Assembly (NCBI GenBank): GCA_951406725.2
Contig: OX597822.1
Span: 69,254,001 to 69,318,000 of the forward strand
Reading direction: 5' to 3'
DNA from: Octopus vulgaris
Lineage: Eukaryota
DNA: 64,000 bases
Part shown: positions 26,142-33,304 of the stretch, piece after piece
Layout: every line of letters starts with the position of its first letter
Position numbering within the stretch: position 1 is the stretch's first letter
The notes under the pieces: model-generated
Databases searched by the model: none
The model's input: the letters and a program-made list of their open reading frames with translations, nothing else
What the model was told of the DNA's origin: nothing
Translations under genes and position numbers: made by a program

Positions 26142-26145
<4 letters not shown>

Positions 26146-26183
26146 ACAAGGAGAGAAAAAATGTGTGTAGTGGCTAACGATCT

Positions 26184-26231
<48 letters not shown>

Positions 26232-26408
26232 AGATCGTTAGCCACTACACACATTTTTTCTCTCCTTGTCTTTTCTGTGTCCCTTTCTGTAGAAGAGCGT
26301 AGGCTCGAAACGTAAAAGACTTTTTCTATTCCTGAGCGTTATACTAATACATCTGTTTGTTTTGTACACCACCTGTCTTCGTCTTTTGCTTTTTTCGTAA
26401 ACTCTCCC
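26142..26408 (+). mobile_element. Penelope-like pLTR-type repeat with inverted 5' copy and HHR-like motif
   Basis: Perfect 46-bp inverted repeat (26142-26187 / 26228-26273) around (TA)n; motif cttt-CTGTAGA-agagc-gtag-gctc-GAAACGTA-aaag at 26283-26318; second copy at 39868-40048. Confidence 0.6.
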
Positions 26409-28699: not shown

Positions 28700-29589
28700 T
28701 TGAGTCATCCCGTAAGTAATGCGGTTTTTTGAATTGCATAAACTAAAAGTCGGAGGGGGAGGTATAAACTACATGCATCAGCTTGCTATAGAAGCAGGTA
28801 GTAATTTTACCTTGTACTTCTTAGTGCAGTTCGATTTTAGCAGTTATATTCTCAAAGCTATAATGGAAGTGACAAAGGAGCATATTCGGCATATTTTGCT
28901 TTATGAGTTCAATAAAGGCCACAACGCAACGGAAAGTGCGAAGAATATTAATGCAGTATATGGCAATCGGACAATAAGCGTAAGCCAGTCTCAGCTGTGG
29001 TTCTACAGCCGGAAACTACAGCCTAGAAGATGAGCTTCATCCTGGAAAATCTGTAGAGCTCGACGAGAACGTCCTGCAAACCCTGGTGGAACAAAATCCC
29101 ATCGTAACTATTGAGGAACTAGCAGAGAAGCTTGGATTTGGTCATTCAACCAATCATTCAAGTCAGCACTAGAAGAAATACGACCATCTTTGCTTTCAAG
29201 AAGAAAAGTATTCATCTATCAGGATAATGCTCGGCCACATACAGCGAGAATGGCATTCCAAAGGCTGGAGCAGTTTGAATGGGAAACGATGCTCCACCCA
29301 CCATATTCGCTGGACATTGCCCCATCTGATTATCATTTATTTCACAGTCTTCAAAATCATTAGGACGGAATAAATAAGAATTCTGTTGACGAGGTCAGTA
29401 TAGCACTGGAGGAGTATTTCTCGTCACAGACAAGTGAATTTTGGAAGAAGGGCCTTGCAAGCCTACTAGACAGATGGAAGAGCATTGTAGAAAATGGAGA
29501 GTATTTTAGACTGAAGAAAAACTTTGTTTATTTTAATTTTTGAAAATAAAAGAAGTGTAAAAAAACCGCATTATTTATGGGATACCCAA
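28700..29589 (+). mobile_element. Internally deleted mariner transposon (D,D34D transposase pseudogene from ATG 28863)
   Basis: ~30-bp imperfect TIRs with TA TSD; MEVTKEHIRHILLYEFNKGHNATESAKNINAVYG, QDNARPH, HPPYSLDIAPSDYHLF, LLDRWKSIVENGEY. Confidence 0.93.
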
Positions 29590-30741: not shown

Positions 30742-30791
<50 letters not shown>

Positions 30792-30991
30792 CTCTGAGCG
30801 AGGTATAAACAGTAGCTGCACGACATCGTGACGTATATTTGCCACTTAAATGTGGCTAACCCCTAAGGGTGGATGCTACTGTAGCTTGTAGTCCCAGGAG
30901 GACACTTCCTTCAGCTGGCTATTGACACACTTTCTGTGCCCTATCAGTATTTTCAAAGGGAAGCCATCCTTCCCGTCTTCAACCTATGATA

Positions 30992-31036
30992 CACACGCAT
31001 TCGAGTTTCTGGGTATTGACCCGTCATCAGCGTGTG
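30992..31036 (-). ncRNA. Minimal type I hammerhead ribozyme, cleavage triplet mutated
   Basis: cacacg-CTGATGA-cgggt-caat-accca-GAAAC-tcga-ATG-cgtgtg; perfect stem I, but the triplet reads ATG instead of GTC. Confidence 0.7.
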
Positions 31037-31317
31037 ACAATCACTGGCTGTCAATGAAAAGTAGCCCCCCCCCCCCCCTTGCAAATATATATCCTTTTTC
31101 CAGTGACAAAATGTCAGTAGCATCCACCCTTAGGGGTTAGCCACATTTAAGTAGTAAATATACTTCACGATATCGTGCAGCTACTGTTTATACCTCGCTC
31201 ACAGATTTATTAATGCTTGTTTACACTTTTTCGATATCAGTGACTTTTCGTCACTGGGAAAAAGGATATATATTTGCAAAGAGAGGCCTACTTTTCATCA
31301 ACAGCTGGTGACTGTCA

Positions 31318-33048
31318 GTAACGGGTGTTGGTAGTGATTTCTTCGATGTGAGTTCAAATTGTTACACACTGATATTGTATGTTTGTTGTAGGTTTCCCCG
31401 CGCGGGTGAACCAAGATTCTTTGGCTTGTGTAAATTATTGAATTTCAGTCACTGTTTCGTTTGCACCTGTATAATCCCCGTCTACGGGAGGAGTAAAGAA
31501 AGATGGAGAATGTACAAAGTTACGCAGCGGCAACGACACAAGGAATAAATACCAACACCCTGGAAGTGCAAGAAATAGAAATGAACATAAGAAAGAGGAA
31601 AGAAGGAAGAAAATTTGTAAAAAAGAAGGGAACAGATGTAAAGCTGACCTCCCCCCATCCCCAGAAGAACTGATGAAAAGCATAGAGAAGAGGACGGTAG
31701 TATACAGAACGTTGTCTACGTCCTCGAACAAGATAGAAGTAAGGTTTGGCAACCAAGAAGATGCCATAAACCACTCCACGGAGCCGTTACGGATAACGAA
31801 ATGGATACTCCTTCCGACGTATTGTGGCAAACGCGCTGCCAGAGTGAGAGTTGGAAGAGTGTCCCCCGAAATCGAGGAAAAATGGCTGGTAGCAGCCATA
31901 ATGCACGATATGAAAGATGGGGTAGAGATCCTCAAGATAACGAGGACTCCAAAGTCCAATTGGTGCGGGTATAGCCTCGAAGTGACCATGCAGGTATCTT
32001 TGGAAGACTTGCATAGTATAACGGAGGAAATAATACTCCCGGAAGACAGCAGACTTCGAGTAACAGTAGAAGGAAGACCACCAACATGCTTCCTATACGG
32101 CAAAAAGGGGCACGTGAAAGCAAGATGTTCCGAGAAGGAAAGCGAAGAGGAGAAGAAAAGTGAAGAAAACAGTACGGAAGAGGTAGTACCAACGAAAGAG
32201 ACAGATAGAGTGGAGGAACCCTTCACAGTAGTAAACACGAGGAAGAGAAAGGAACGGGTGAATTCTCCCCCAGACAGTCAAAAAGGCTAAAGGAGATTGT
32301 GATGGAAGAAAAGAGAAATAGGTGTGAAGCACCAACAGAAGCAGTAGTGAAAGAAGGCACAAAGGAAAAAACAGCATTACAACTGGGAGAAAAAGGAAGC
32401 GTTCATAAAATTGGTTATGATGTTTCTGCACGCCCGAACAGATCAGGACGGGAGCCGAAGCAAGCAGAAGTGAAAAGGAAGAGATATAAGTGGCATTTGG
32501 TCACGTATTCTTAAAGTAAAGAAATAGAAAAAGCGATTGTAAAATTTATACCGGCAATAAGAGTAAAGCTGCCGCCAGGAAAATACCCGGAATACACAAA
32601 AAGGAATAGTCATAGACAAAGAGAAATTTTTGAAATTGAGAGAGATGTATGGATTTTTCATAGACCCACTGGGGGTTGAAGTCGAGTTTCATAAGCTCCC
32701 GTTGGACGTGGAATTAGAAGATTTGAAACCCTTTATGAACATTTAAAAATAAGTAAAATTTGTACTTCATAAAAAAACGAGGAAAATATACTGTTAAAAT
32801 GTATAAAGAAAAAAGAAAAAAAAACCCCAAAAGACTAAGAAAAAGAAGAAAAAAAAGAAAAAGACTGTAAGACCGTTTATCGTAAAAAAGAAATCGCGGT
32901 TTCGTCTCGGAGAGGGACCGAGAAAACCGTATTATATTCATTATAATTTAATTCATTGTAATTCATTTTTTCTTATGTTTTTTTTTTGTTCCCGCATGTT
33001 TGTGTATGTACCCCCTGTATTCAGGCCTTGTGCCTATAATAAAGAGAA
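31318..33048 (+). mobile_element. ORF1-only (HAL1-like) non-autonomous L1/Tx1-type retroelement
   Basis: 5' UTR, ORF1 remnant, A-rich then T-rich 3' UTR, AATAAA at 33038-33043; flanked by the degenerate 15-bp direct repeat AGCTGGTGACTGTCA / AGCCAGTGATTGTCA; no APE or RT sequence seen. Confidence 0.65.
31503..32746 (+). pseudogene. L1/Tx1-type ORF1 (Gag-like RRM plus CCHC zinc knuckle) protein; longest intact segment 31673-32290
   Basis: N-terminal MENVQSYAAA; RRM-like 'IEVRF...LLPTYCGKRAARVRVGRVSPEI'; VEGRPPTCFLYGKKGHVKARC = CX2(C>Y)X4HX4C; charged tail with FTVVNTRKRK; continues through frameshifts and a stop to ~32746. Confidence 0.7.
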
Positions 33049-33061
33049 AGCCAGTGATTGT

Positions 33062-33106
33062 CACACGCTGATGACGGGTCAATACCCAGAAACTCGAGTC
33101 CATGTG
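33062..33106 (+). ncRNA. Minimal type I hammerhead ribozyme (predicted cleavage after GUC at 33100)
   Basis: cacacg-CTGATGA-cgggt-caat-accca-GAAAC-tcga-GTC-catgtg; intact core, palindromic TCGA loop III, one stem I mismatch. Confidence 0.8.
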
Positions 33107-33268
33107 TATCATAGGTTGAAGACGAGAAGGATGGTTTCCCTTTGCAAATACTGATAGGGCACAGAAAATGTATCAATAGCCAGCTGGAGGAGGTGTCCTC
33201 CTGGGGCTACAAGCTACAGTAGCATCCAGCCTTAAGGGTTAGCCACATTTAAGTGGCAAATATACTCA

Positions 33269-33304
<36 letters not shown>

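Follow-up and report, generated by a model that had tools for sequence, protein, structure and literature searches.

An ORF1-only LINE nested in a hammerhead ribozyme repeat of Octopus vulgaris and the probable placement of its clade relative to TATA-like promoters

Introduction

Does a locus in which hammerhead ribozymes lie beside a retrotransposon ORF1 represent one new element or two old ones? The question is raised by a 64-kb stretch of the Octopus vulgaris genome (assembly GCA_951406725.2, contig OX597822.1, positions 69,254,001–69,318,000, forward strand), here called the window; positions follow its numbering, and labels such as L016 denote fetched genomic copies. A preliminary description had proposed a single retroelement in which a hammerhead unit and a Gag-like open reading frame 1 (ORF1) are fused. 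We conclude with confidence that the window instead contains a HAL1-like long interspersed nuclear element (LINE) inside a retrozyme-like repeat. Judged by its sequence relationships, this LINE probably belongs to a clade that is guided by position to the start sites of TATA promoters, the ORF1-only element likely being placed there by the enzyme of an autonomous relative.

Results and discussion

Nested structure of the locus

The LINE occupies 1.73 kb (31318–33048) and is collinear with its sister copies; neither a reverse transcriptase (RT) or endonuclease nor an ORF2 was found within this interval. It is bracketed by a direct repeat of 15 nt, identical at 12 of 15 positions (31303–31317 and 33049–33063), which is absent from the preliminary description. 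In the LINE family, variants of this duplication agree on both sides of a given locus and also exist in empty repeats, and it is therefore regarded as a target-site duplication (TSD). The idea of one fused element was thus abandoned in favour of two separate ones, an ORF1-only LINE inserted in a hammerhead repeat with a 15-nt TSD.

The inverted repeats of about 225 bp noted earlier do exist, but their arms are two copies of the host repeat and not the ends of the ORF1 element. The arms (30833–31052 and 33046–33265) are 220 nt long with 94% identity, or 228 nt with 93.4% identity according to blastn. Segment A forms an inverted pair at 30788–30881 and 31115–31208 (95% identity) and segment B at 31035–31116 and 31241–31317 (78% identity), while both outer ends of the locus are flanked by (TA)n. 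The features of the locus are as follows (HHR, hammerhead ribozyme).

30745–30787, no strand: (TA)n microsatellite, terminus of the inverted repeat copy
30788–31116, minus: inverted hammerhead repeat copy B-HHR-C-A, unoccupied, showing the empty target site
30993–31035, minus: likely inactive type I hammerhead, its cleavage triplet and helix III pair both spoiled
31115–31317, plus: A-spacer-B, upstream portion of the plus-strand repeat copy
31265–31276, plus: TATA-like run in B, putative repeat promoter (7/8 consensus matches at offsets 33, 35 and 37 before the projected duplication start)
31303–31317, plus: TSD, 5' copy (12/15 identical to 33049–33063)
31318–33048, plus: ORF1-only (HAL1-like) LINE of L1/Tx1 type, without poly(A) tail
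31504–32746, plus: broken ORF1 with two RNA recognition motif (RRM)-like domains and a knuckle, then a charged tail (domains from the predicted fold of relative L071; blastp match to an autonomous LINE ORF1)
32087–32128, plus: zinc knuckle inside ORF1, degenerate in this copy
33038–33043, plus: AATAAA in the LINE's own 3' tail (same tail in long terminal repeat (LTR) and mariner hosts)
33049–33063, plus: TSD, 3' copy
33063–33105, plus: type I hammerhead with intact core and palindromic loop III, predicted cut after 33100
33106–33272, plus: C-A, remainder of the plus-strand repeat copy, stopping at one of two common 3' ends
33271–33304, no strand: (TA)n microsatellite, 3' end

Recurrent insertion at the ribozyme-side site

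The surrounding genome is 2.8 Gb in size and rich in microsatellites. A first look yielded 3,164 candidates for the hammerhead part and 380 for the ORF1 element, 40 per family being scored. Counting the flanks of other ORF1 copies, as had been proposed earlier, revealed recurrent junctions. In 25 of the 29 other fetched loci of the window's family, 35 3' ends could be classified: 22 adjoin this hammerhead repeat, one a different hammerhead, ten the next LINE via the same duplication and two neither (a regular expression gave 23/9/3; two rows were reassigned by eye). The 20 intact 5' ends, assigned by eye, follow B in nine cases, another LINE tail in ten and neither in one. Target preference in Tx1 elements has been defined as over 20% of flanks belonging to one type (PMC4494074, accessible text), a value exceeded here by the 22 of 35 3' ends at this repeat. 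The window's family was found in two subfamilies of the hammerhead repeat (99/99 support).

The same site is used by a related ORF2-bearing family found via L107. Among 20 loci fetched, L128, L135 and L142 adjoin it with the 3' end and L136, L140 and L143 with the 5' end; other ORF2-bearing copies sit at two further hammerhead families. In a quick tree, from which three of 55 labelled loci were left out owing to short matches, at least five ORF1 lineages use the window's ribozyme-side site, and the lineages do not group by host. Recurrent junctions, TSD, tandem arrays and ORF2-bearing relatives all bear out the second of two earlier models, in which a LINE derivative reduced to ORF1 is aimed at the position just 5' of the ribozyme. 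The ribozyme as such is not the target, as relatives in LTRs and mariners keep an equal spacing from a TATA-like box.

Spacing to TATA-like boxes in unrelated hosts

In a set of 60 diverged ORF1 loci, the copies that retain both ends have duplications of 10–20 nt in very different hosts. Close relatives reside in LTRs, two mariner families and other hammerhead repeats, and the inserts run in the host's direction wherever this is readable. The copy in L072, which occupies the hammerhead repeat, shares 91% identity with that in L087, whose flank is unrelated, and five copies with 84–90% identity have flanks without BLAST matches to one another. The LTR hosts were recognised by eye: L075 and L084 are followed by gag-like frames and a TGG resembling a primer-binding site, and L228 contains a solo LTR whose duplication measures 5 bp. 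Both mariner families are hit upstream of the transposase start, the second one immediately before the transposase ATG, where two of the 11 top copies besides the query locus are occupied. L325 is a whole mariner carrying one insert with its duplication, while L322 is an array that includes an ORF2-bearing copy and is followed by the remainder of the mariner.

In a first, hand-picked set, a TATA match was located 24–36 nt upstream in 10 of 17 cases (shuffles 1.7). A scripted test was then based on the 30 best hits from each of two families with such unrelated flanks, the duplications being called by script. Among these 60 loci, 25 were missing an end, eight had no duplication and two were tandem; 25 rows (four loci twice) were used, corresponding to 12 host clusters. 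TATAWAWR was matched at seven or more of eight positions at 22–36 nt in 9 of 12 clusters (shuffles: mean 1.8, maximum 7). At 28–32 nt, matches of at least 6/8 were present in all 12 clusters (36 other windows: mean 4.0, maximum 7) and matches of at least 7/8 in nine (other windows: mean 1.6, maximum 5). Without tie-breaking, a best match within 10–70 nt lands at 28–32 nt in all 12 clusters. Those four of the 12 that are new relative to the hand-picked set (L220, L229, L243 and L252) fit this spacing as well. The distance to a putative core promoter element is accordingly fixed over unrelated targets in 12 of 12 clusters, the exceptions being sites inside short interspersed nuclear elements (SINEs), (ATT)n sites and shifted hammerhead sites.

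Further hosts were noted outside this test. In L074, L080, L090, L172, L183 and L188, ORF1-only copies are stacked at one site of a repeat that we take to be Helentron/HINE-like; inspection by eye places a TATA-like run some 29 nt upstream. In L076, L194, L195 and L206, a presumably tRNA-SINE-like repeat is occupied both internally and at its 5' end, and a TATA box was not seen. L269 (1500–1900) contains a tandemly repeated unit of about 150 nt that comprises the 5' end and promoter of a mariner.

The ORF1 protein and the autonomous relative

The preliminary description of a zinc-knuckle ORF1 lacking RT and endonuclease was correct as to the missing enzymes, but this ORF1 is broken and its knuckle degenerate. 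Compared to three sister copies, about 93 nt are gone after position 31735, small indels shift the frame, and the second Cys of the knuckle is replaced by Tyr. A Pfam search gave no domain match in the window's ORF1. The predicted fold of the L071 ORF1 has two RRM-like domains ahead of the knuckle (mean predicted local distance difference test score 54, about 70–80 within the domains), with tandem RRMs as top structural matches (E 1e-4). A protein search for relatives returned only four, all from Octopus bimaculoides, and an Atlas search pointed to CCHC and ZCCHC3-like clusters as a lead. In total, 13,601 ORF1 candidates are present in the genome.

The AATAAA upstream of the ribozyme core was confirmed at 33038–33043, 24 nt before the core. 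It is the LINE's own signal and not tied to the ribozyme host, since the same tail, directly followed by the duplication, occurs in LTR and mariner hosts without a ribozyme. For the same reason, the hammerhead is not needed to define the 3' end of the ORF1 RNA, a role that had been suggested for it.

The ORF1 of the window's family matches that of a young autonomous LINE (29% identity over 188 columns, blastp E 3e-32), and the 3' tails of both elements are similar. The autonomous ORF2 comprises APE, RT and zf-RVT domains (Pfam PF03372, PF00078 and PF13966) and is nearest to human L1 ORF2p among PDB structures. ORF1 homology and the similar 3' tail indicate that the ORF1-only element derives from an autonomous L1-group LINE, by whose ORF2p it would be mobilised in trans.

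Several other arrangements of these LINEs were observed. Loci L111–L118 (e.g. G000:C47 and C50) contain a very young autonomous LINE of L1/Tx1 type with an ORF2 of 1145 aa, in tandem arrays of about 5.87 kb split by short (ATT)n; in L111, neighbouring copies pair two different ORF1 types with the same ORF2. Within the arrays of L004 and L061, internally deleted versions of the ORF1 element of 0.4–0.7 kb form a third, SINE-sized tier. In L078/L260, a Penelope-type element with an open RT frame of 487 aa and a broken GIY-YIG part is inserted into an ORF1 copy.

Proposed mode of insertion

Target choice of APE-type LINEs is usually credited to the sequence specificity of the endonuclease. For the octopus clade, we find it probable that position matters instead. 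ORF2p would act in trans by target-primed reverse transcription (TPRT), with one nick in the template strand close to +1 and another in the opposite strand 10–19 nt further on. The choice of site would depend on position, mediated by an interaction with either the pre-initiation complex or an open promoter. A possible adaptor is ORF1p, by analogy with TRE5-A, and such a role would explain why non-autonomous copies keep ORF1. Transcription of the insert would start at the host promoter, with the insert's own AATAAA directing polyadenylation, and a second insertion could re-use the duplicated start, giving rise to tandem arrays. The ribozyme belongs to the host repeat and need not have a role in the LINE cycle, and the composite of LINE and repeat may occasionally be re-copied by the repeat's own route. 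We lean slightly, but no further, towards the more far-reaching version of this scheme, in which a single machinery targets +1 of TATA promoters irrespective of sequence, in LTRs, mariner transposase genes and hammerhead retrozymes alike, takes over the promoter and keeps ORF1-only passengers with ORF1p as the link to the pre-initiation complex.

A number of points weigh against placement relative to the promoter. The 28–32-nt window behind the count of 12 of 12 clusters was chosen post hoc, after the peak had been seen, and eight of the 12 clusters contain loci from the hand-picked first set or loci similar to them. The promoter role of the TATA-like boxes and the start positions are themselves inferred from sequence. 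The window's own TATA spacing of 33–37 nt lies outside the range, three copies end within the tRNA-SINE-like repeat without a visible TATA box, and one ends in (ATT)n. The young autonomous family likewise resides in (ATT)n and does not fit the TATA rule, while the ORF2-bearing copies L132, L141 and L144 sit about 15–35 nt deeper in a related hammerhead repeat. Hammerhead repeats account for nearly all copies found of the window's family and of the ORF2-bearing family that shares its site; sequence or host preference therefore contributes too. No cellular gene promoter was identified among the targets, and a LINE tail was found upstream of none of 20 U1 and U2 genes (10 of the 42 U1 and 10 of the 48 U2 genes listed, all intact top scorers, giving low power). 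In 5'-truncated copies from other hosts, the upstream host sequence is missing in seven of nine rows, unlike the expectation for plain TPRT; this could reflect re-copying of read-through RNA or a deletion, either at the 5' junction or at a later time. Finally, the label Tx1 is assigned by resemblance, the comparison made here supporting membership in the L1 group only.

Alternative explanations

The strongest competitor, which we nevertheless consider unlikely, is ordinary sequence specificity of the Tx1 type. Here, each subfamily's endonuclease, or a read-through RNA pairing with the target, would read its own sequence, and copies near promoters would prevail since only they are transcribed and found new lineages. 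The near-confinement of the window's family to hammerhead repeats is in line with this, as are the three hammerhead families hit by ORF2-bearing relatives, the TATA-less SINE-internal and (ATT)n sites, and the preference of crocodilian Tx1 families for given transposons (PMC4494074, accessible text). However, copies with 84–91% identity lie in flanks without common sequence, one site is common to at least five lineages, and the spacing is held to a 5-nt window over 12 hosts, some of which were seen once only.

The first of the two earlier models is very improbable as the origin of the composite and was largely refuted. It postulates a Penelope-type element with pseudo-LTRs that spreads as one unit, with ORF1 for its cargo and an RNA 3' end produced by ribozyme cleavage. 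Composites do share with plain repeats the two places in (TA)n where copies stop, an inverted 5' piece in L016/L326 holds LINE and repeat together, and 16 of 20 composites are 5'-truncated, with B adjoining only one of those 16 (by eye). On the other hand, a TSD is present on both sides of the LINE, the inverted repeat copy in the window is empty, and the LINE tail was detected in only two of the first 30 of 61 loci with the exact hammerhead, one of them being the window. Distances of LINE and repeat are uncorrelated (centred Mantel r 0.05, p 0.21, 21 loci; the tree is weak and star-like, so power is low), truncated copies in other hosts likewise mostly have no upstream host DNA, and the same 3' tail is found in ribozyme-free hosts. 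The absence of B upstream of truncated copies had been considered as proof of hitch-hiking and was dropped, as the control in other hosts shows the same loss. The one clear locus, L016/L326, suggests occasional copying of composites by the repeat's route, whereas frequent hitch-hiking of the LINE with the hammerhead repeat appears doubtful.

Even less credible is a strand-transfer parasite, in which the host RT jumps from the 5' end of its own RNA onto the LINE RNA, the apparent TSD being a short terminal redundancy like retroviral R. Such a route would fit a duplication that begins near the inferred +1, the lack of poly(A) and an AATAAA located 15–25 nt before the end of the 3' duplication copy. 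Yet mariners, which have no RT, are hit alike, with an untranscribed promoter and terminal inverted repeat upstream, and host strand transfer is thus unlikely as a general route; the ORF2-bearing LINE uses the same sites, and L325 contradicts it. A one-off nested insertion, compatible with the old and broken state of the window's copy, is refuted by the other 3' ends: 33 of 35 adjoin either this site, in single or tandem form, or a different hammerhead.

The hammerhead repeat as host

The host repeat has a monomer of about 370 nt in the order A-spacer-B-HHR-C and is common in the genome, where it lies in (TA)n. Copies form partial tandems in which a 5' piece is often inverted, and they mostly stop at two fixed places before AT-rich or (TA)n sequence. 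A hammerhead had been described in each arm. The plus copy is intact, with a full core, a one-pair helix III with palindromic loop and one mismatch in helix I, but neither the cleavage triplet nor the helix III pair survives in the minus copy. Sister hammerheads preserve the palindrome in several differing loops (three mis-cut rows of the alignment were left out), and the 33-nt core has 61 exact genomic occurrences, the reversed control none. An Rfam search returned no match to the window's hammerheads, and minimum free energy folding of monomer and dimer did not yield the hammerhead fold.

As in retrozymes, the repeat is short and non-coding and carries a type I hammerhead whose core is conserved. 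Two or more tandem hammerhead units on the same strand were not found: the window has one per strand, and the 30 loci examined contain partial tandems or inverted pairs. Penelope-like traits are an inverted 5' repeat copy and 5' truncation, while an ORF for a Penelope-like RT with GIY-YIG domain between repeat copies is absent from the window. The repeat can be assigned by its sequence to the retrozyme or Penelope-end type, cleavage and circular RNA being predicted from its kind only. In L036 (565–1485), the A-spacer of the hammerhead repeat is joined to a truncated Penelope-like element (PLE), the 3' end of which resembles segment C (76% over 55 nt). This junction is missing from 29 sister PLE copies, and the PLE of L036 is at best a weak candidate for a partner of the repeat.

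Contigs of four presumed RNA runs are shallow over B. This was dropped as a start-site signal, because three large unlabelled control runs show the same dip.

At least four further hammerhead repeat families were observed, each with a LINE directly upstream and two of them weakly similar to the window's repeat (L011 2820–2900; L175 2760–2860; L181 and L186; L131, L133 and L134 6430–6520).

Comparison with known systems

HAL1 (half-L1) is a non-autonomous derivative of the L1 group encoding ORF1p alone (PMC5753468, accessible text). The octopus element is likewise ORF1-only and L1-group derived, but it occurs in a mollusc, has a Tx1-type partner, is directed to a site, stacks in arrays and lacks a poly(A) tail.

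According to the accessible text of PMC4494074, Tx1-clade targets include Tx1D for Xenopus Tx1L, Mariner-N4_AMi for crocodilian Tx1-Mar, LTR elements for Tx1-8_Crp and Tx1-4_AMi, and Harbinger for Tx1-9_AMi; tandem copies round the TSD, non-autonomous riders on the same target and a suggested co-transcription with the target are also described. Multicopy transposon targets, tandem copies round the TSD and riders sharing the target are found in the octopus as well. In those systems, each family has its own target set by the endonuclease and inserts in both orientations, and the accessible text states no TATA spacing; the octopus family, by contrast, hits unrelated hosts, hammerhead repeats included, at one promoter-relative position.

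Dictyostelium TRE5-A, an APE-RT-ZF non-LTR element, encodes an ORF1p that binds TBP, Brf1 and Bdp1 and is placed by TFIIIB, 44–54 bp upstream of RNA polymerase (Pol) III genes and in the opposite direction (PMC5911963, accessible text). The octopus clade would likewise be placed relative to a transcription complex, but at a putative Pol II start, downstream of TATA and in the host's direction; protein contact is proposed by analogy only.

Metazoan type I hammerheads with weak helix III and palindromic loop are active as dimers (PMC4209133), and short non-coding monomers are known from non-LTR retrozymes and the pseudo-LTR hammerheads of PLEs (PMC7229834; bioRxiv 10.64898/2026.07.22.740005; accessible text in each case). 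The octopus repeat shares the non-coding monomer of this size, the type I hammerhead, its weak helix III and palindromic loop, and copies on opposite strands; it differs in occurring mostly as partial tandems in (TA)n and is known from sequence alone. The accessible parts of this literature mention neither octopus nor Tx1. Active L1-Tx1 and Penelope families have been listed for Octopus vulgaris (PMC13282606, accessible text). No paper was found on LINE or Tx1 insertion positioned by TATA boxes or start sites, or on Tx1 in hammerhead repeats, although Repbase/Dfam, subscription papers and supplements may hold such reports.

If promoter-relative placement is true, the tethering principle of TRE5-A and Ty3 extends to Pol II core promoters in an animal, and there is a testable reason for the free target switching of Tx1 elements and for the retention of ORF1 in ORF1-only derivatives. 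Insertions would then map the start sites of other transposons and sever these hosts from their own promoters. Such a transposon-on-transposon parasite may silence LTR, mariner and retrozyme promoters and offers a lead for promoter-directed, RNA-templated insertion. The link to hammerheads alone represents a modest new target type.

Neighbouring features and further observations

The first bases of a U1 gene in L372 (335–394) are repeated immediately upstream of it as a short duplication. Within the window, a perfect inverted repeat round a (TA)n run (26145–26270) resembles two element ends back to back, and a similar arm is present upstream in L055. A broken mariner transposase (HTH_48, weak DDE_3) is located at 28716–29363.

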